NCBI GenBank assembly: GCA_018713665.1 | Contig: DVOI01000054.1 | Span: 1-50,014 of the forward strand | Source of the DNA: Candidatus Ornithoclostridium faecigallinarum | Lineage (GTDB): Bacteria; Bacillota; Clostridia; Christensenellales; UBA3700 | Direction of reading: 5' to 3' | Length of the DNA stretch: 50,014 bases | In this document: in pieces, positions 17,178-25,334 of the stretch | How positions within the stretch are numbered: the stretch's first letter is position 1 | Layout of the letters: every line of letters starts with the position of its first letter | Program-made: the position numbers and the translations under genes | The notes under the pieces: generated by a model | What the model saw: only the letters and a program-made list of their open reading frames with translations | Databases searched by the model: none | Told to the model about the DNA's origin: nothing

Positions 17178-18287
17178 TCAAAGCCTGCGCTCGAACTCGT
17201 CGTAGCCGAATTCCCTCACCGTCTCGAGCGTGCCGTCCGTATGCCGCACGCATATCGACGGCAGACGCATGCCGTTGAACGTGTTCGTCTTGACCATCGT
17301 GTACAGCGCCATGTCGAGGAACCTGAGCCTGTCCCCGACCGCGAGCGGCGCGTCGAACGAATAGTCGCCGATCACGTCGCCGGCAAGGCATGTCGGTCCG
17401 CCCAGGCGATAGGTGTGCGCCTTCTCCCCCGGCTCGCCGCTCCCCTCGAGAGGCGGACGATAGGGCATCTCCAACACGTCGGGCATATGACACGCCGCCG
17501 ACGCGTCGACGATCGCGATGTCCATGCCGTTGCGTACGATGTCCTCGACGCGGCAAACCAGCGCGCCTGCGTTGAGCACGACCGCCTCGCCCGGCTCCAA
17601 GTAGACTTCTGCGCCGTACCTGTCTTGAAGCCGCTTGACGACCCTCACCAGCCTGTCGCGGTCGTAGTCCTTGCGCGTGATGTGGTGGCCTCCGCCCAAA
17701 TTGATCCACTTGCACCTCTTGAGCAAGTCCCCGAACCTCGCCTCGAGCGCGTTCACCGTCGCTTCGAGATCGTCCGAGTTCTGCTCGCAAAGGGTGTGCA
17801 TGTGCACGCCGTCCAACATCTCGGCGACGTCTTCGGGCAGCTCGTCAGCTGTCGTCCCCAGCCGCGAAAAGTCGCCGCAAGGGTCGTAAATGCCGTGCCC
17901 TCTTTGGGTGGAAAATTGGGGGTTGAGCCGCAAGCCGACCTGTTTGCCAGCCGCCTTTGCGCGCGGCAAAAATTTTCGTGCCTGTGTCGGCGAATTGAAT
18001 ATTATGTGATCGACATAACCGATCAATTCGTCCCACTCTTCTTCGTTGTAGGCAGGCGAAAAGACGTGCGTCTCGCCGCCGAAACGCGTCTTGCCGAGGC
18101 GCGCTTCGTAAAGCCCGCTTGCGGTCGTGCCGTCCAAATAGCGCGATATCAGCGGATAGGTGCAAAAAGCGGAATACGCCTTTTGGGCGAGCAGTATCTT
18201 GCAGCCCGCCGCCTCGCGTACTCCGCTCAATATCTCCAAGTTGCGGATGAGCGCCGCCTCGTCTATCTCGAAATAGGGCGTGCGCAT
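17178..18287 (-). CDS. nspC: Carboxy(nor)spermidine decarboxylase
   Basis: Start MRTPYF at 18287; LAQKA (PLP Lys), YDPC, SRLG, HTLCEQ, NLGGGHHIT, CHMPDVLEMPY, TCLAGD. Confidence 0.93.
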   Translation of the reverse strand: MRTPYFEIDEAALIRNLEILSGVREAAGCKILLAQKAYSAFCTYPLISRYLDGTTASGLYEARLGKTRFGGETHVFSPAYNEEEWDELIGYVDHIIFNSPTQARKFLPRAKAAGKQVGLRLNPQFSTQRGHGIYDPCGDFSRLGTTADELPEDVAEMLDGVHMHTLCEQNSDDLEATVNALEARFGDLLKRCKWINLGGGHHITRKDYDRDRLVRVVKRLQDRYGAEVYLEPGEAVVLNAGALVCRVEDIVRNGMDIAIVDASAACHMPDVLEMPYRPPLEGSGEPGEKAHTYRLGGPTCLAGDVIGDYSFDAPLAVGDRLRFLDMALYTMVKTNTFNGMRLPSICVRHTDGTLETVREFGYDEFERRL

Positions 18288-19546
18288 CACTCCACCAAGT
18301 CGGGGTGTTCTTCCACCTGCCACGGCAAGCCGTTCTTGTTCAGCTCGTCCATGTACGGATCGGGGTCGAACTCCTCGCATGTGAACACGCCGTCCCTGTT
18401 CCACTTGCCCGTCAGCAGCATCTTGGCGCCTATCATCGCCGGTACGCCCGTCGTGTAGGATATCGCCTGTGACTCGACCTCTTTGTAGCACTCCTGATGG
18501 TCGCAGACGTTGTAGATGTAGGCGGTCTTGCGCTTGCCGTCCTTGACGCCGGTGAAGATGCAGCCGATGTTGGTCTTGCCCTTGGTGCGCGGACCGAGCG
18601 ACGCCGGATCGGGCAGCAGCGCCTTGAGGAACTGTATCGGCACGATCTCCCTGCCCTCGTACATTATCGGCGAAGTGGACAGCATGCCGACGTTCTCCAA
18701 ACACTTCATGTGCGTCAGATAGCTCTGCCCGAACGTCATGAAGAAGCGGATGCGCTTGACCCCCTTGATGTTCTTGGCGAGCGACTCTATCTCTTCGTGA
18801 TGGAGTAGGTACATGTCCTTGACTCCGACGCCGTCAAAGTCGTATTGACGCTTGATGCTCATCGGCGGGATCTCGACCCACTTGCCGTCCTCCCAATACG
18901 ACCCCGGCGCGGAAACTTCGCGCAGATTGATCTCGGGATTGAAGTTGGTCGCGAACGGATAGCCGTGGTCGCCGCCGTTGCAGTCGAGGATGTCGATGGT
19001 CTCGATCGTGTCGAACAGATGCTTTTGCGCGTACGCGCAGAACACCTGCGTCACGCCCGGGTCAAAGCCCGAACCGAGCAGCGCGGTCAAGCCCGCCTTC
19101 TCGAACTTCTCCTTGTAGTCCCACTGCCACGAGTAGTCGAACAGCGCGGTGAAGCCCTGCTCTTTGCACCTCTTCTCGTACCTCGCCTTCCAGACGGGAT
19201 CGTCGAGATTTTCGGGCTCGTAGTTGGCGGTGTCCATATAGTCGACGCCGCATTCGAGGCAGGCGTCCATGATCGTCAGGTCCTGATAGGGAAGCGCGAT
19301 GTTCATCACGAGGTCGGGCTTGACCTCGCGGATGAGAGAGACGAGCGCGTCAAAGTCGTCCGCGTCCACCTCGGCGGTGGATATCTTTGTCGCAGTCTTG
19401 CCTTTGAGCTTCGCCGCCAAGTCGTCGCACTTGGACTTGGTGCGGCTGGCGATGACTATCTCGCCGAACACGTCGCTGTTCATGCAGCACTTGCGGATTG
19501 CGACGGAAGCGACCCCGCCGCAGCCGATGATCAAAACTTTTGCCAT
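18287..19546 (-). CDS. Carboxy(nor)spermidine dehydrogenase/synthase (saccharopine dehydrogenase family)
   Basis: IIGCGGV Rossmann motif, ALPYQDL, DTANYEP, GFDPG, FATNFNPEIN; translationally coupled to nspC. Confidence 0.92.
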   Translation of the reverse strand: MAKVLIIGCGGVASVAIRKCCMNSDVFGEIVIASRTKSKCDDLAAKLKGKTATKISTAEVDADDFDALVSLIREVKPDLVMNIALPYQDLTIMDACLECGVDYMDTANYEPENLDDPVWKARYEKRCKEQGFTALFDYSWQWDYKEKFEKAGLTALLGSGFDPGVTQVFCAYAQKHLFDTIETIDILDCNGGDHGYPFATNFNPEINLREVSAPGSYWEDGKWVEIPPMSIKRQYDFDGVGVKDMYLLHHEEIESLAKNIKGVKRIRFFMTFGQSYLTHMKCLENVGMLSTSPIMYEGREIVPIQFLKALLPDPASLGPRTKGKTNIGCIFTGVKDGKRKTAYIYNVCDHQECYKEVESQAISYTTGVPAMIGAKMLLTGKWNRDGVFTCEEFDPDPYMDELNKNGLPWQVEEHPDLVE

Positions 19547-19547
19547 T

Positions 19548-20411
19548 TCACTTCTCCTTTATCCCGAGCGCGATTAACAATTCGCGCACGATCTTACATG
19601 CCGCGGCGGTAGAAGCGCCGCTCGCGTCGTAGTGGGGGCTGAGCTCGTTGACGTCCAGCCCTATCACGTTGCACCTTCTCGCGACAAAAGTCGCCGCGCG
19701 GCGCAATTTGTCAAAAGACACTCCTCCCGGTTCGGGCGTCCCCGTCCCCGGGAACACCGACGGATCGAGCACGTCGAGGTCGAGCGTAAAGTAGACGGGC
19801 TTGCCGGCGAGGTCTTGTACGACCCCCTCCAACCCGTCGAAGTCGAACTTGTGCATGTCCGTCTCGGACGCGGCGAAGACGAACTCCGACCTGTCGCCCG
19901 AACGTATGCCGAATTGGTGTATCCTGCCCTTGCCGACAAGCTCCCAACACCGCCTTAACACACACGCGTGCGAAAATTTCACTCCGAGATAGTCGTCCCG
20001 AAGGTCGGCGTGAGCGTCGAAGTGGACGATGTGCAGATCGGGGTATTTGCGCACCGCCGCTCTGACCGCGCCGAGCGTGACGAGATGTTCGCCGCCCAGC
20101 ATGAACGGGACCTTGCCCGCCGCAAATATGTCCGCCGCAGCCTCCTCTATCGCGGCGAGCACAAGCTGAGAGTCGCCTATCGCAAGCTCGAGATCGCCGG
20201 CGTCGCAGACGGCGACTTCGGACAGCTCGGCGTCGAGATAGGGGCTGTACTCTTCAAGCCCGATCGAGTCGACGCGTATCGCCCGAGGTCCCGACCTCGT
20301 CCCGGGGCGGAAGGAAGTCGTGCCGTCGAACGGCGCGCCGAACATCACGATGTCCGCCTCTTCGAACGGACGGTCGCAGCCCATGAATGCGTCAATCTGT
20401 CTGCTCAACAT
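19548..20411 (-). CDS. speB: Agmatinase (ureohydrolase)
   Basis: GAPFDGT, GGEH, FDAHADL, DLDVLDP, GTGTPE. Confidence 0.92.
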   Translation of the reverse strand: MLSRQIDAFMGCDRPFEEADIVMFGAPFDGTTSFRPGTRSGPRAIRVDSIGLEEYSPYLDAELSEVAVCDAGDLELAIGDSQLVLAAIEEAAADIFAAGKVPFMLGGEHLVTLGAVRAAVRKYPDLHIVHFDAHADLRDDYLGVKFSHACVLRRCWELVGKGRIHQFGIRSGDRSEFVFAASETDMHKFDFDGLEGVVQDLAGKPVYFTLDLDVLDPSVFPGTGTPEPGGVSFDKLRRAATFVARRCNVIGLDVNELSPHYDASGASTAAACKIVRELLIALGIKEK

Positions 20412-21252
20412 TTTTCAAAAGTTCCTCCACATATGCCGGAATGTAGAACGCGCCCTTGTGCAGCGTCGTAGTATAGTAGCGGCACTTGAACCCGCGCATG
20501 TTCCATCTGCGCTCGTTGAGATCGCGCAGCGGATGATACTTCTTGGAAGCGAAACCGAACAGCCAATGCCCCGAAGGATAGGTCGGGATGTGCGCCTGAT
20601 AGACCTTCGCCGCCGGGAAGGACTCCACTATCCTCTTGTGCGCGCGCTGGCAGGCGAGAGCGTCCTCGGCGTAAAACGGACTTTCGTGCTGATTGATCAT
20701 GATGCCGTCCTCGTGCAAAGCCTTGCAGCAATTGCCGTAAAACTCGCGCGTGAACAGCCCTTCGCCCGGCCCGAACGGGTCGGTGCTGTCGACGATGATG
20801 AGATCGTATTCGTCCTTGCAGCCTCTGACGAAACGCAAGCCGTCGCGGTAGTGTATCGTCACGCGCGGATCGTCGAGCGAACAGGTGACCTCGGGGAAAA
20901 ACTCGCGGCTGACTTCGACGACCTGTTTGTCGATCTCGACAAGGTCGATGTGCTCGACGTCGTCGTAACGGCAAAGCTCGCGCACCGCGCCGCCGTCGCC
21001 GCCGCCTATCACCAGCACTCTCCTGACGCGCGGATGCACCGCCATCGCCGGATGCACGATCATCTCGTGATAGATGAACTCGTCCTTTTGGGTGAGCATC
21101 ATGTAGCCGTCGAGCACGAGGAAGCGCCCGAACTCGGGGCTGTCGAACACGTCGATGCGCTGAAAGTCGCTGTGTCCGCTGTAAAGCTGCCTGTCCACGC
21201 GGATGGACAGCTTGACGTCCTTGGTGTGCAATTCCGAAAACCAATAATCCAT
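20392..21252 (-). CDS. speE: Polyamine aminopropyltransferase (spermidine synthase family)
   Basis: DEFIYHEM, GGGDGG, VEID, DSTDP, IPTYPSG. Confidence 0.95.
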   Translation of the reverse strand: MDYWFSELHTKDVKLSIRVDRQLYSGHSDFQRIDVFDSPEFGRFLVLDGYMMLTQKDEFIYHEMIVHPAMAVHPRVRRVLVIGGGDGGAVRELCRYDDVEHIDLVEIDKQVVEVSREFFPEVTCSLDDPRVTIHYRDGLRFVRGCKDEYDLIIVDSTDPFGPGEGLFTREFYGNCCKALHEDGIMINQHESPFYAEDALACQRAHKRIVESFPAAKVYQAHIPTYPSGHWLFGFASKKYHPLRDLNERRWNMRGFKCRYYTTTLHKGAFYIPAYVEELLKNVEQTD

Positions 21253-21255
21253 TGC

Positions 21256-22710
21256 TCATTCCTCCACGACGTTGAGCTTCTCGATCGCCGGATCTTCGGG
21301 CCCCGTCATCTGGCAGCCCTTCTCCTTGGCGTAGGCGATGTAGTCGAGTATGCGGCGCGTGATGCGCTCGCCGGGCGCGAGGATTGGGATGCCGGGCGGA
21401 TAGCACATCACGAACTCGCTGCAAATCCTGCCCTCCGTCTTTTCGATGGGAAGCATCTCCTCTTTGTCCGCGTAGAACGCGTCCTGCGGACTCATCTCGA
21501 CGATGGGCTCGATGTATTCGTGCTTCATCAAGCCCGCCTTTGACTTTTTGTACAACCGGCGTATCTCCGCGAGCGCGCTGACAAGCCGCTCGATGTCCCT
21601 CTCCCTGTCGCCGATGGACAGATAGGCGAGGATGTTGCCGAGGTCGCCGAACTCAATCTGAATGTCGTACTCGTCGCGCAGCAGGTCGTAGACCTCTATG
21701 CCGGCGAGCCCTATGTCAAGAGTGTTGACCGACAGCTTTGTCTCGTCAAAGTCGAACACGGTGTCGCCGTTGACGAGCTCTTTGCCGTATGCATAGTAGT
21801 CGCCGATGTCATTGATCTCATCGCGGGCGTAGCGCGCCATGCGCATCACCTCGCCGAACGCCTGCTCGCCTCTGAGCGCGAGATTGCGGCGCGAGATGTC
21901 GAGCGAGGACAGCAGCAGATAGGACGCGCTGGTCGTCTGCGTGAGGTTGATCACCTGGCGGACGTAGCCGTCCTGCATCGCGGGCCCCGTCAACAGCAGC
22001 GAGCTCTGCGTGAGCGAACCGCCCGACTTGTGCATGGACACCGCCGCCATATCCGCGCCTGCCGCCATTGCCGAGACGGGCATGTCCTTGCCGAAATAAA
22101 AATGAGTGCCGTGCGCCTCGTCGACGATGCAAAGCATGCCGGCGGCGTGAGCGAGCGACACGATCGCGCGCAGATCGCTGCAAATGCCATAATAGGTGGG
22201 ATTGTTGACGAGCACCGCCTTGGCGTCGGGATTGGCGGCGATCGCCCTCTTGACCGCGTCCACGCTCATCCCGAGCGATATCCCAAGCCTGTCGTCCGTC
22301 TCGGGGTCGACATAGACGGGCACCGCGCCGTTGAGGACCATCGCGGTCATAACGCTGCGGTGGACGTTGCGGGGCAGGATGATCTTTTCGCCGCGCTTGG
22401 TCACCGTCAAGATCATCGTCTGTACCGCCGACGTCGTGCCGCCGACCATGAGGAACGCGCCGTGCGCGCCGAACGCCTCGGCGGCGAGCTGCTCCGCGTC
22501 CCTGATCACCGAGACCGGGTGGCAGAGATTGTCCAGACACTTCATCGAGTTGACGTCGAGCGACACGCACTTTTGCCCGAGAAGCTCGGTCAATTCGGGA
22601 TTGCCTCTGCCGCGCTTGTGCCCCGGTACGTCAAAGGGCACGAGACGCATGCTCTTCATCTCTTGAAGGGCTTCATAGATGGGTGCGCTCGTCTGCGACA
22701 GCTTTTTCAT
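21256..22710 (-). CDS. speA: Orn/Lys/Arg decarboxylase class I (probable arginine decarboxylase)
   Basis: VPGHK, RNVHRS, PTYYG, DEAHG, SMHK, YPPGIP. Confidence 0.88.
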
Positions 22711-23477
22711 TTGCGTGCGGAAAAGACGTTGCGTCCGCTGAAGATCTCGATCATCTCGCGGCGCAGATTGTCCATGATTTCGAGCCTCGTGCGGGGCGGC
22801 AGTTCATAGACGTCTGTCTTGAAAAGATAGTTTTGAAGGTCGATGTCCTTGACCATCATCTTGGTGTGGTAGATGTTCGCCTCATAGACGTTGATGTCGA
22901 CCGCGTCGTAGCGGCGCAGCGTCTCGGGCGCGATGTAATCCTGTATGGACTTGACGTCGTGGTCCATGAACAGCTTTTGCCCGTCGACGTCGCGCGTGAA
23001 ACCGCGCACGCGGTAGTCGAGCGAAATGATGTCCGAATCAAAAGAATCAATCAAATAGTCGAGCGTGGACAAAGGGGTGATCTCGCCGCAGGTCGCGACG
23101 TCGATGTCGACGCGGAAAGTCGCGAGCGAGGTCTCGGGATGAAACTCCGGATAGGTGTGCACGGTGACGTGGCTCTTGTCCAGATGCGCAAGCTGGGTCT
23201 CCCCTGCCGGGATCATGCTGTCCTCGGCGATCAGCACGGCAACGGACGCGCCCTGCGGCTCGTAGTCCTGGCTGGCGATGTTGAGCACCTTGGCGCCGAT
23301 CATATCGGTCAGCGTCGTCAAAATGTTGGTCAGCCTCTCCGAGTTGTACTGCCCGTCGATGTACGCGATGTAATCGCGCTGTTCGCGCGCGGTCTTGGCG
23401 TAGCAGACATCGTAGATGTTGAAGCTGAGCGATTTGGTCAGGTTGTTGAAGCCGTACAGCTTGAGTTTGTCTCCCAT
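22707..23477 (-). CDS. speD: S-adenosylmethionine decarboxylase proenzyme (long, E. coli-like class)
   Basis: [32 protein letters not shown] self-cleavage site, TCG; alternative in-frame TTG start at 23531. Confidence 0.95.
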
Positions 23478-23490
23478 AAGCGTCTCCCAT

Positions 23491-23777
23491 GAGAAAGGCG
23501 ACATGCACTCCGCATATCGCCCGTAAAACAACCGTCAATCCTCCACGGATATCTTCAGAGTCTATATAGCAAATACACTTTTACTACTCTTATTGATTGT
23601 TTTACAAGCGGTTTGTGCTTTCGCACTGTTTGTTGAGTAACCAACTCATAAGATCGAGCGAACTCGATCACAATAAGGCAACTTGCGTTGCGATCGGCAG
23701 TGGACCCGGCTGTCCGTATGGCCTTATCCTTGCGGGAGGTCCGAATATTTGCATGGATACTCTGTGATATCCCATGT
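23491..23777 (-). ncRNA. Candidate cis-regulatory structured RNA (polyamine operon leader)
   Basis: Closing helix 23544-23575 with 23746-23776; GCAA, UUCG and GAAA tetraloop hairpins on the minus strand; competing pairings; terminator-like hairpin at 23497-23521. Confidence 0.7.
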
Positions 23778-23783
23778 ACCCCT

Positions 23784-23812
23784 ATTGTAACCAAAAGAAA
23801 GGGATAAGTCAA
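23784..23812 (-). promoter_or_regulatory. sigma-A promoter of the polyamine operon
   Basis: TTGACT-17bp-TACAAT. Confidence 0.8.
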
Positions 23813-23822
23813 CTATATCGAC

Positions 23823-23859
23823 AAATAAAAAACGCGCGCGCCGAAACGCACGCGCTTTT
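23823..23859 (-). terminator. Intrinsic terminator of the MFS gene
   Basis: GCGCGTGCG-TTTCGG-CGCGCGCG followed by TTTTTTATTT on the minus strand. Confidence 0.7.
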
Positions 23860-23873
23860 CGTGAACCTGTCTC

Positions 23874-25334
23874 TCATTCCGCAAACCTTCCGCCGCCGTG
23901 AGAGGCACTATCGGCGATATCGACGGCTGCGCTCTCGCCGCTTACGTCGTCTGCCGCCGCGGCGCGGCGCTTGGCAAGCTCCTCTTTGATCGTATTGAAG
24001 CGGTCGCGCCCCATGTTCGCCCTGTGCGAAAAGACGATAGAGACAAGGAAGATAACGCCGGGAAGCACGCCGAGCACGACGCGCACCGCCATAAGCGCGC
24101 TGTCGGGCTGATCGATCACCGTGCCGTCCATGCTCTCGGTGTAGCCGAACGCCTCGAGTACGAGCGATACGAGCGCGATGGATACGCCGCTGGCGATCTT
24201 GTACATGAATTGAGTTATGCCGTAGTAGGCGCCCTCGCGGCGGACGCCGTTGACGTACTCGTCCACCTCTATGACATCGGGCACGCCCGCATAGGGCAAG
24301 ATCTGTATAGCCGACATCCCGGCCCCTGCGAACACACACAAAAGCACCGTCGACCAGACCGTCTCTGCCGGCACGAAGATTGCGAACAACAGCACGAACG
24401 CCATGTACACGCATGCGACGACGTAGACCTTGTGCTTGTTGTACTTCTCGCTGAGCTTGACCCATAGTGCGGACGACGCTATCGCGCAGACGAGCGGAAT
24501 CGCAACAAAGATCATCGCCATCGCGCCGCCGCCGAAGCCAAGCGAGTCGTTGATGAAGAACATGAACACCGCCATGATGATGTCAAACCCGACCATGCTG
24601 AGCAGGTAGCACATCATGATGTTGCGGAACTCGGGCAGCTTGAAAAATTCTTTGAGCGTGGTGAAAAAGCCCTTGTCGTTCTCGGGCGCGTCGGACACGC
24701 GCTCTTTGATGTTGTAGCCGCTGAAAAACATGATCGCGACCGCAATCGCCGCAAATATGCCCGCGGCGAGAAGATAGGCGCGCTTGCTGTCGCCGAATAT
24801 GCCGTAAAACACGCTCTCGACGCCGTCCGCAAGCAGCGCGAACACCGCCGCGCCGATGATGAGCCCGACGTTGGCGAGCGCAATACGGATGCCGTTGAGC
24901 GAAGTCCTCTCGTCATAGTCGTCCGTCATGTTGGCGGTAACGGAGTTGTACGGGATGTAGACGACCGTCCATGCGGTGTTGAACAGCATGTAGGCAAAGG
25001 TGTAGTACAGCATTTTTTCCCATTGTTGATCGGCGCCGCCCGGCACCAGCCAAAGCAACAGAAAACACAGCCCGTACGGCAGCGCGCCGAACAGCATATA
25101 TACCCTGCGCTTGCCCCACTTGCTTTGAGTCTTGTCGGTGATGCGCCCCATCAGGTAGTCGGTGATTGCGTCCCACGCCTTGGCGATGAGGAACACCGCC
25201 GACGCCAGCCCGGGCGAAAGCCCGCCGACATTGACGAAAAAGTAAAGCAAATAGAAGGAGATCGCCGCGAACAAAATGTTGGCGGACAGATCCCCGAGAC
25301 CATAACAGACCTTTTCTTTAACGGACAATTTCAT
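23874..25334 (-). CDS. MFS glycoside-pentoside-hexuronide (GPH/MelB-like) cation symporter
   Basis: EKVCYGLGD, WDAITD..MG.ITDKT.SKWG.RR, G.RREG.YYG; about 12 hydrophobic segments. Confidence 0.9.
   Translation of the reverse strand: MKLSVKEKVCYGLGDLSANILFAAISFYLLYFFVNVGGLSPGLASAVFLIAKAWDAITDYLMGRITDKTQSKWGKRRVYMLFGALPYGLCFLLLWLVPGGADQQWEKMLYYTFAYMLFNTAWTVVYIPYNSVTANMTDDYDERTSLNGIRIALANVGLIIGAAVFALLADGVESVFYGIFGDSKRAYLLAAGIFAAIAVAIMFFSGYNIKERVSDAPENDKGFFTTLKEFFKLPEFRNIMMCYLLSMVGFDIIMAVFMFFINDSLGFGGGAMAMIFVAIPLVCAIASSALWVKLSEKYNKHKVYVVACVYMAFVLLFAIFVPAETVWSTVLLCVFAGAGMSAIQILPYAGVPDVIEVDEYVNGVRREGAYYGITQFMYKIASGVSIALVSLVLEAFGYTESMDGTVIDQPDSALMAVRVVLGVLPGVIFLVSIVFSHRANMGRDRFNTIKEELAKRRAAAADDVSGESAAVDIADSASHGGGRFAE

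Follow-up and report, generated by a model that had tools for sequence, protein, structure and literature searches.

An ldcC-family RNA within a larger conserved leader precedes the polyamine operon of Candidatus Ornithoclostridium faecigallinarum and is a candidate OFF switch

The ldcC motif was described in 2017 as an orphan cis-regulatory candidate (PMC5737381). The text of that description presents it as a bulged hairpin, plus a possible invariant pseudoknot whose bases never vary, that is usually located in the 5' untranslated regions (UTRs) of arginine, ornithine or S-adenosylmethionine (SAM) decarboxylase genes; it is also found before potA and before a gene for a C39A peptidase, and its authors suggest that it takes part in polyamine homeostasis (PMC5737381). 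Here we analyze the leader of a polyamine operon on the minus strand of a 50,014-nucleotide (nt) stretch, hereafter the window, from Candidatus Ornithoclostridium faecigallinarum (assembly GCA_018713665.1, contig DVOI01000054.1, positions 1-50,014). An earlier note, made from the sequence alone, had singled out this leader, located directly before speD, as a candidate undescribed riboswitch or attenuator.

In the literature that could be reached, one validated polyamine riboswitch class was found, a rare variant of the SAM-I riboswitch (PMC10853860). According to that study (Salvail et al. 2023), this RNA resides in cis leaders of speE, speB and decarboxylase genes in Firmicutes and terminates transcription upon spermidine binding (PMC10853860), and the layout of the leader studied here suggests the same logic. 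The two RNAs are unrelated: a four-stem SAM-I fold on one side and a multi-domain RNA closed by a helix P1 on the other, in which the switching strand would be the 3' strand of an internal helix, P6. The speF, odc1 and potE motifs are likewise candidate cis-RNAs located before polyamine synthesis or transport genes, mostly with unknown ligand, but they come from α-proteobacteria and Veillonella and have other, smaller structures (PMC11477304, PMC8632094).

Our results place the leader in the ldcC family and demonstrate that the published hairpin is here the first part of a much longer conserved RNA of about 215-226 nt. We propose that this RNA probably acts in cis as a transcription-terminating OFF switch, whose signal would most likely be spermidine or a close polyamine.

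The ldcC hairpin as part of a longer conserved RNA

The leader belongs to the ldcC RNA family. The model RF02440 (SpF59_sRNA, ldcC RNA) matched positions 23694-23742 on the minus strand with 61 bits against a gathering score of 37.2 (E = 1.3e-10), over its full length (positions 1-54 of 54), and this was the sole match above threshold when the whole window was scanned with Rfam 15. The matched segment corresponds to the GGACC...GGUCC domain of the leader. It consists of a hairpin with a bulge bearing the conserved AAGGCCAUACGGACAGCC, followed by the tail aAUGCCGA, and it is located in a 5' UTR with speD and an Orn/Lys/Arg decarboxylase gene downstream; every family feature that could be tested is present. 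The RNA is consequently not an undescribed one, as had been supposed in the earlier note, which had itself named a match to a known Rfam family as evidence to the contrary. Its remark that the leader does not resemble SAM-I, T-box, lysine or guanidine RNAs was borne out, as models of these families, including the other SAM-family models, gave no match in 23400-23900 at E values up to 10. An AGUAGUA string in the leader presumably only resembles the AGTA boxes of T-box leaders. The motifs speF, odc1, potE and potC, the last being a further polyamine-linked RNA motif, did not match the region in the Rfam scan either, as far as they are contained in Rfam, and sub-threshold matches such as DUF805 (E = 1.7) were taken as chance. 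Our literature search, from which subscription journals as well as the figures and supplements of the 2017 description largely fell out, yielded no paper giving a ligand or a larger structure for the ldcC motif.

The 54-nt Rfam model covers the front quarter of the conserved RNA, and about three quarters lie outside it. In the window and in 4 representative loci, no Rfam family matched the RNA outside the ldcC hairpin, the P3-P7 domain included. In its architecture, a three-part helix (P1a, P1b and P1c) encloses the ldcC hairpin, the hairpin P3 and a 3' domain formed by P4, P5, P6, P6a and P7 (Table 1). Unconstrained folding of 23470-23780 gave -102.7 kcal/mol (z = -3.81), which none of 100 shuffles equaled, and the resulting fold holds the three-part closing helix, the hairpins with GCAA, UUCG and GAAA loops, and a terminator-like hairpin. 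All helices and hairpins listed in the earlier note, as well as its promoter, were found on the minus strand where it had placed them.

Loci of relatives were collected with the ldcC model alone, which matched in 17 of 61 genomes, the organism's own genome included, and the same long RNA extends through the flanks of these loci. Read from 5' to 3', its first half contains CAGAGU, GCAAAUA, the ldcC hairpin with CACUGCCGA, P3, CUUAUUG and P5, and its second half UUUUAUAAGUUGGUUACUUUAUAACC, a variable P7, ACUUGUGAAACGGUCAAUAAGAGUAGUAAAAGU, UAUUUGC, UAUAUAG and ACUCUG; the junctions AGAGUAGUAAAAGU, UAUAUAG and GAAACGG are invariant. A covariance model of the 3' domain, R1 (155 positions, 31 pairs), matched the organism's own genome once, at 23554-23701, and ldcC is likewise present there in one copy, so that the RNA is not a dispersed repeat. 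With respect to the published motif, the window segment agrees in matching the full model and in lying within the 5' UTR that precedes decarboxylase genes of the SAM and arginine/ornithine types. It differs in that, here and in all independently sampled members examined, P1 closes a longer RNA around the hairpin, together with some 150 nt of conserved 3' domain to which no Rfam model extends. This 3' domain is moreover found in forms lacking the hairpin; these differences are judged from the 2017 text, and the alignment of that study may show more.

Covariation was observed in P3, P5, P6, P6a and P1c. RNAalifold, applied to a full-length MAFFT alignment (A1), returned only 22 pairs, including GGUC/GACU and GUAGUAA/UUGCUAU between invariant stretches; this fold was set aside and the helices were drawn by hand because A1 misplaces the variable helices. 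In a MAFFT alignment of 92 sequences (A2), the hand-drawn helices P3, P4, P5, P6 and P6a were paired in 91.6% of the cells, with two-sided changes in 19 of 31 pairs, whereas 0 of 500 shuffles reached any of these measures and slid controls were paired in 28-48%. The model-fitted alignment A3, which leans to the fitted structure, raised these values to 95.9% and 24 of 31 pairs. Two-sided changes were present in all pairs of P3 (97.9% of cells paired in A3) and of P5, and in 4 to 6 of the 8 pairs of P6 (95.9-96.7% paired). P6a covaries outside the window, for example as GAUUA/UAAUC and GGCAA/UUGCC. At position 4 of P1c, U-A was counted 14 times and A-U 12 times, and 243 of 336 cells of this helix were canonical, whereas 1000 shuffles averaged 211.8 and reached 238 at most. 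The closing pair of the ldcC hairpin covaries as well (GC 28, UA 9, CG 5).

The remaining helices vary little. P4 was paired in 98-99.8% of cells and is nearly invariant, which makes covariation uninformative. In P1b, 93.9% of cells were paired; changes in its 5' strand were limited to A/G exchanges opposite U, and its 3' strand GACUCUG was invariant, so that the pairing is compatible with the data rather than proven by compensation. For P1 as a whole, cognate strands formed duplexes of -22.5 and swapped strands of -19.4, and the cognate strand was the best of 16 in 31 of 118 cases, a modest excess in a test that is limited because much of P1 is conserved in sequence.

Other pairings put forward in the earlier note fared differently. 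The two competing helices, CGAUCGCAA (23696-23688) with UUGUGAUCG (23673-23665) and GAUAAGGC (23728-23721) with GCCUUAUU (23679-23672), are both present as sequence, but the first is not conserved, as it needs an extra UG at 23670-23669 where letters stand in 7 of 55 rows (no formal count), and the second, considered as a conserved pseudoknot, was paired in 70.8% of cases against 71.1% in shuffles and is rejected as such. The stem UGAGU/ACUCA (23648-23644 with 23638-23634) can form in the window in place of P6a, but it is not conserved and represents a local variant of the P6/P6a region.

Distribution of the 3' domain and forms without the hairpin

R1 matched 99 of the 100 sources searched and 14 of the 15 loci found through ldcC (14 loci of relatives plus the window). 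The exception in both cases is L014, from genome G033, where an ldcC match of 51 bits precedes speD and no R1 match was obtained even at E up to 1; its downstream sequence retains no more than fragments of the consensus, and it is a divergent or decaying form. In another genome, G008, two ldcC matches (L011, at C14:14-62, and L018, near the end of C33) are located at contig ends and look like one locus split by the assembly inside the RNA, not like two copies.

Two draws of genomes were made independently of the 3' domain. Of 150 other genomes drawn across the phylum, 4 contain RF02440 and 5 contain R1; all 4 ldcC matches adjoin R1, and one genome carries R1 alone. In a class-wide draw centered on the Neobacillus genome G211, RF02440 was found in 11 of 151 genomes, in each case with R1 (149-166 bits) directly 3' of it; this count includes the center genome, which had been picked because it carries the RNA, and one genome is common to both draws. 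The RNA is present in roughly 3-7% of the sampled genomes.

A pattern derived from the 3' domain identified at least 120 stretches (L019-L138) in a collection of species genomes, which constitutes a non-random sample. Besides the relatives, more than 100 other species share the same architecture, and the structure thus goes beyond chance. Among the matches listed, the carriers are mostly Clostridia-type (Oscillospiraceae, Ruminococcus, Lachnospiraceae, Blautia, Acetobacterium and Clostridium), a few records are labeled Neobacillus or Rummeliibacillus, and three contigs are labeled Bacteroidota.

The ldcC hairpin is frequent in this sample and not universal. Its core string was found in 89 of the 109 matches listed that had enough upstream sequence, one of which (L032) was a chance match on reading, and about 20 of the 109 lack the hairpin or have another small hairpin instead. 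Five stretches (L045, L055, L063, L102 and L113; A4 columns 104-127) have an additional small hairpin, inserted after the ldcC tail GAAUGCCGA and before P3, and several of these precede potA-like transporter genes and not synthesis genes. The three Bacteroidota-labeled stretches, L032 (Bacteroidaceae), L042 (Salinivirgaceae) and L064 (Prevotellaceae), have P1b and the 3' domain and are devoid of the ldcC hairpin, of P3 and of a clear P1c. In L042 and L064, the latter on a contig of 403 kb, this short form precedes a decarboxylase gene whose protein is 72-74% identical to that of the window; horizontal transfer of the operon with its leader may account for these forms. The forms without the hairpin, which are invisible to Rfam, might sense a different polyamine.

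Predicted switching between aptamer and terminator

The leader appears to be organized as three mutually exclusive pairings, P6 (1:2), an antiterminator (2:3) and a terminator (3:4). In the proposed mechanism, the folded aptamer, presumably locked by its ligand, would allow the weak, A-U- and G-U-rich P6 to retain its 3' strand; the downstream hairpin would then form, and transcription would end before speD. In the unlocked aptamer, the P6 3' strand and its neighbors (23611-23595) would pair with 23533-23518, this pairing would open the base of the terminator, and RNA polymerase would read into the operon. The mutual exclusion of aptamer helix, antiterminator and terminator is shared with the classical platforms of SAM-I and lysine riboswitches, which usually switch through the 3' strand of their closing helix P1. 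In the present RNA, by contrast, the conserved complement of the terminator arm is the internal P6 3' strand with the adjacent P7 arm, 60-200 nt upstream, and the pairing of this strand with the 5' arm of the terminator appears to be the real switching element.

The complementarity between aptamer and terminator is a recurrent property of these leaders. Of 130 loci, 125 have a hairpin with an adjoining U-run no more than 330 nt downstream, as determined with a script, a few of whose assignments are doubtful. Many of these terminators begin with CGCAAGU, the complement of the invariant P6 3' strand ACUUGUG. For 120 loci, the aptamer segment extending from the 3' arm of P7 to the beginning of the 3' strand of P4 was paired with the terminator 5' arm plus 14 nt upstream of it. 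Mean duplex energies were -16.3 kcal/mol for cognate partners, -9.8 for shuffled and -13.5 for swapped ones, and 72 of the 120 cognate duplexes reached -15 or lower, compared with 8% of shuffled duplexes, 36% of swapped duplexes and 13% of those formed with another aptamer segment. The complement of the P6 3' strand, YRAGY, is present in 81 of 117 terminator 5' arms and in 18% of shuffled arms. One example is compensatory: in L105 and L023, which carry ACUUA or ACACUU, the terminator arm reads CUUAGGUGUG.

In the window itself, CCGCUUGUAAAACAAUC (23611-23595) and GGUUGUUUUACGGGCG (23533-23518) form a predicted duplex of -24.2 kcal/mol. A transcript cut at 23507, lacking the 3' arm of the terminator, folds in silico into the antiterminator helix, and for the complete leader the state with aptamer and terminator (-95.5) is close to the forced antiterminator (-90.5). 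The contest covers only the basal 3-5 bases of the terminator, whose arms GGCGAUAUGC (23521-23512) and GCAUGUCGCC (23506-23497) form a stem of 10-11 pairs, and exclusion needs an extension of the antiterminator helix into three basal G's. The general claim of the earlier note, that of a conserved structured cis leader of a polyamine operon with a terminator-based platform, is upheld by these results, and the leader is a strong riboswitch or attenuator candidate.

Several observations weigh against the proposed OFF switch or against parts of it. The terminator-like hairpin of the window, noticed before and present with UUUCUC behind it, has a weak U-run and was not listed by the terminator scan, while same-genus relatives have the same stem followed by UUUUU. 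When the 3' piece is folded in isolation, an antiterminator helix of 11 base pairs coexists with the full terminator. Covariation between aptamer and platform is modest, as the cognate partner beat all 20 swapped ones in 12 of 120 loci where 5.7 were expected by chance; the variable P7 arm pairs somewhat better with its own terminator (-6.2) than with others (-4.6), the cognate being within the best 10% in 17 of 71. As for the fold, P4 and the P1b 3' strand never vary, so that their pairing rests on complementarity, and P1a, which we treat as lineage-specific, gave cognate duplexes of -8.5 against -6.5 kcal/mol for swapped ones, the cognate being the best in 3 of 54. Invariance at the 20 bases of the search pattern is forced in L019-L138. 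The matches without the ldcC hairpin leave its part in the mechanism unclear. Metatranscriptome contigs span the terminator, and such contigs carry no information on starts, ends, strand or level. Finally, a protein or another factor could stabilize the aptamer in place of a ligand.

Regulated genes, candidate signals and significance

Among the matches listed, 106 loci found with the pattern had at least 600 nt of downstream sequence, and polyamine synthesis or transport genes were located on the same strand in 104 of them. The first gene is speD in 52, a decarboxylase gene in 40, a gene for a potA-like ATP-binding cassette (ABC) ATPase in 8 (a label that rests on ABC_tran and TOBE_2 only), a carboxyspermidine dehydrogenase (CASDH)-type gene in 4, an M28 peptidase gene in 1 and a C39-like peptidase gene in 1. 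At L034, L078 and L135, a pair of CASDH-type and decarboxylase genes was the only regulated gene content detected.

From the genes and the terminator layout we infer that the aptamer binds a ligand and that binding turns expression off. The signal would be an end product of the pathway, spermidine or a close polyamine, spermidine being the best guess. An end-product signal fits because synthesis genes and potA-like transporters would both be shut off, and in other Firmicutes the same gene set is controlled by a validated spermidine OFF riboswitch (PMC10853860). Other metabolites of the pathway, namely agmatine, putrescine, arginine, SAM, decarboxylated SAM (dcSAM) or methylthioadenosine (MTA), could act through the same aptamer and platform. 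Judged by its Pfam families, the operon uses arginine and SAM and passes via agmatine and putrescine; according to the text of the motif description, arginine, ornithine and SAM decarboxylases are the main associated genes (PMC5737381); and forms lacking the hairpin could differ in specificity. We regard such a ligand as unlikely, given that an OFF-switch layout suits an end product better than a precursor and that SAM aptamer models found no match. Decarboxylated SAM and MTA are further disfavored as a common ligand because at some loci the CASDH-type and decarboxylase genes are the only regulated ones detected; to our knowledge, the carboxyspermidine pathway uses no dcSAM and makes no MTA.

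The same layout would also serve a protein-dependent attenuator, in which an RNA-binding protein, for example a polyamine-loaded regulator or a pathway enzyme, stabilizes the fold. The lack of a reported ldcC ligand in the literature searched agrees with this idea, as do the long invariant single-stranded stretches of a large RNA, which suit a protein site, and the invariant P1b 3' strand GACUCUG, which is conserved beyond the needs of pairing. The RNA occurs, however, in Clostridia-type and Bacillus-type genomes and on three Bacteroidota-labeled contigs with polyamine genes as the only shared neighbors, and the contexts that were read contained no candidate regulator gene (no search for a co-occurring protein family was made). 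Its size, its multi-helix junction and its many invariant junction bases are, as a matter of general knowledge, typical of metabolite aptamers. We therefore consider protein-dependent attenuation improbable and favor the ligand-responsive OFF switch.

Tentatively, we suggest a broader possibility, to which we give somewhat less than even weight: the whole P1-closed RNA of about 215 nt may represent a second polyamine riboswitch class of the spermidine type, unrelated to the SAM-I variant and far more widespread, that switches via an internal helix strand and not via P1. The heart of such a class would be the 3' domain, with P4-P7 and the invariant junctions, and the ldcC hairpin would be a frequent but dispensable part.

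The leader forms its own transcription unit, because the MFS_2 transporter gene upstream ends with a strong intrinsic terminator (23855-23834, minus strand) just ahead of the leader promoter. The promoter TTGACT-17-TACAAT agrees with the consensus at 10 of 12 positions, with one such site against 0.7 expected in shuffles, and TACAAT occupies the corresponding position in the same-genus loci L003, L012, L015 and L018; judging from its position, transcription would start near 23777. The earlier note had drawn attention to GGAGG (23543-23539) and an in-frame UUG at 23531 (open reading frame, ORF, 22707..23531). Both are there, but the UUG is not the start of speD: this gene begins at ATG 23477-23475, preceded by GGGAGA, and the N-terminus beginning there recurs in relatives. 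Read from their Pfam families, the last two genes of the operon would encode carboxyspermidine dehydrogenase-like and carboxyspermidine decarboxylase-like enzymes, and the operon (17178-19546, 20392-23477) appears to encode two routes to spermidine, speD with speE and carboxyspermidine dehydrogenase with its decarboxylase. The start of the last gene is ambiguous, as its ORF (17178-18704) overlaps the gene before it.

In contig-level metatranscriptome data, contigs from 4 runs of 4 studies cover the leader and run on into speD. Word depth in metatranscriptomes from chicken and other guts jumps over 23680-23743 and 23552-23615, to as much as 269 compared with about 10-20 alongside. Loose ends of these spikes at 23693 and 23724-23726 lead to different flanks and stem from homologous RNAs or DNA of other organisms, the two conserved cores being common to many organisms in these samples. 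This high depth, which may reflect DNA or the sum of many organisms, would also agree with a stand-alone small RNA (sRNA) acting chiefly in trans, for which the place before polyamine genes would be secondary. Rfam indeed lists RF02440 as 'Gene; sRNA', the family is named after the Streptococcus sRNA SpF59, and leader transcripts that end at the terminator, about 285 nt long, would build up as a small RNA. Such a role is very improbable as the main one: the RNA has a fixed place between a promoter and same-strand polyamine genes in nearly all of the listed loci, the complementarity of the terminator 5' arm to the aptamer makes sense only in cis, and the genome holds a single copy.

Table 1. 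Features of the leader and its surroundings in the window, in order of transcription.
Feature	Position	Strand	Basis and remarks
MFS_2 transporter gene	23874-25334	-	Pfam; upstream of the leader
sigma-70-type promoter	23784..23812	-	TTGACT 23812-23807, 17-nt spacer, TACAAT 23789-23784
Whole conserved RNA, putative aptamer	23547..23772	-	P1a 5' to P1a 3' strand, ~215-226 nt; fold and conservation
P1a 5' strand GGAUAUC	23766..23772	-	pairs with P1a 3' strand GAUAUCC 23547-23553
P1b 5' strand CAGAGU	23759..23764	-	pairs with P1b 3' strand ACUCUG 23556-23561 (invariant GACUCUG)
P1c 5' strand GCAAAUA	23746..23752	-	pairs with P1c 3' strand UAUUUGC 23569-23575
ldcC hairpin, bulge AAGGCCAUACGGACAGCC, tail CACUGCCGA	23694..23742	-	RF02440; GGACC...GGUCC at 23742-23702
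P3 hairpin GCAAC-GCAA-GUUGC	23678..23691	-	comparative pairing
P4 5' strand CUUAUUG	23671..23677	-	pairs with CAAUAAG 23589-23595
P5 hairpin GAUCGAG-UUCG-CUCGAUC	23652..23669	-	UUGAG...CUCAA in most other lineages
P6 5' strand UUAUGAGU	23644..23651	-	pairs with GCUUGUAA 23602-23609, 8 pairs
P6a region	23628..23642	-	consensus GGUUA-loop-UAACC; degenerate in the window
P7 variable hairpin GUGC-GAAA-GCAC	23615..23626	-	hairpin here in most sequences, with unrelated letters; pairs not formally counted
Predicted switching segment CCGCUUGUAAAACAAUC	23595..23611	-	P7 base, P6 3' strand, junction, start of P4 3' strand; complements 23518-23533
Conserved junction AGUAGUAAAAGU	23577..23588	-	partly forced in pattern-selected loci; present too in loci found via ldcC alone
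Conserved internal loop UAUAUAG	23562..23568	-	between P1c and P1b
Predicted antiterminator partner GGUUGUUUUACGGGCG	23518..23533	-	overlaps base of terminator 5' arm
Terminator-like hairpin GGGCGAUAUGC-GGAGU-GCAUGUCGCC(U), then UUUCUC	23491..23522	-	fold
speD, S-adenosylmethionine decarboxylase proenzyme	22707..23477	-	Pfam AdoMet_dc; ~300 nt past promoter
Orn/Lys/Arg decarboxylase gene	21256-22710	-	Pfam
speE	20392-21252	-	Pfam
Agmatinase-family gene	19548-20411	-	Pfam
Saccharopine-dehydrogenase-type gene	18287-19546	-	Pfam
Orn_DAP_Arg_deC-type gene	17178 to ~18290	-	Pfam

Relative to the literature reached, the full architecture, the hairpin-less forms, the occurrence on Bacteroidota-labeled contigs and the conserved pairing between P6 and the terminator appear to be new, and a prior description is possible. 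Among orphan riboswitch candidates, the ldcC motif belongs to the widespread ones. If all of the roughly 215 nt make up the aptamer, constructs restricted to the published hairpin would be missing most of the binding fold, and this would account for the lack of a reported ligand. The extension makes the question of its ligand directly testable, with full-length constructs and a short list of polyamines. It also provides a search model for the hairpin-less forms that Rfam misses and a predicted switch mechanism that names specific bases. For the window alone, the outcome is an annotation, that of a known RNA family with a predicted OFF-switch leader before speD; beyond it, a regulatory link emerges for the way in which many gut Clostridia make and take up polyamines.

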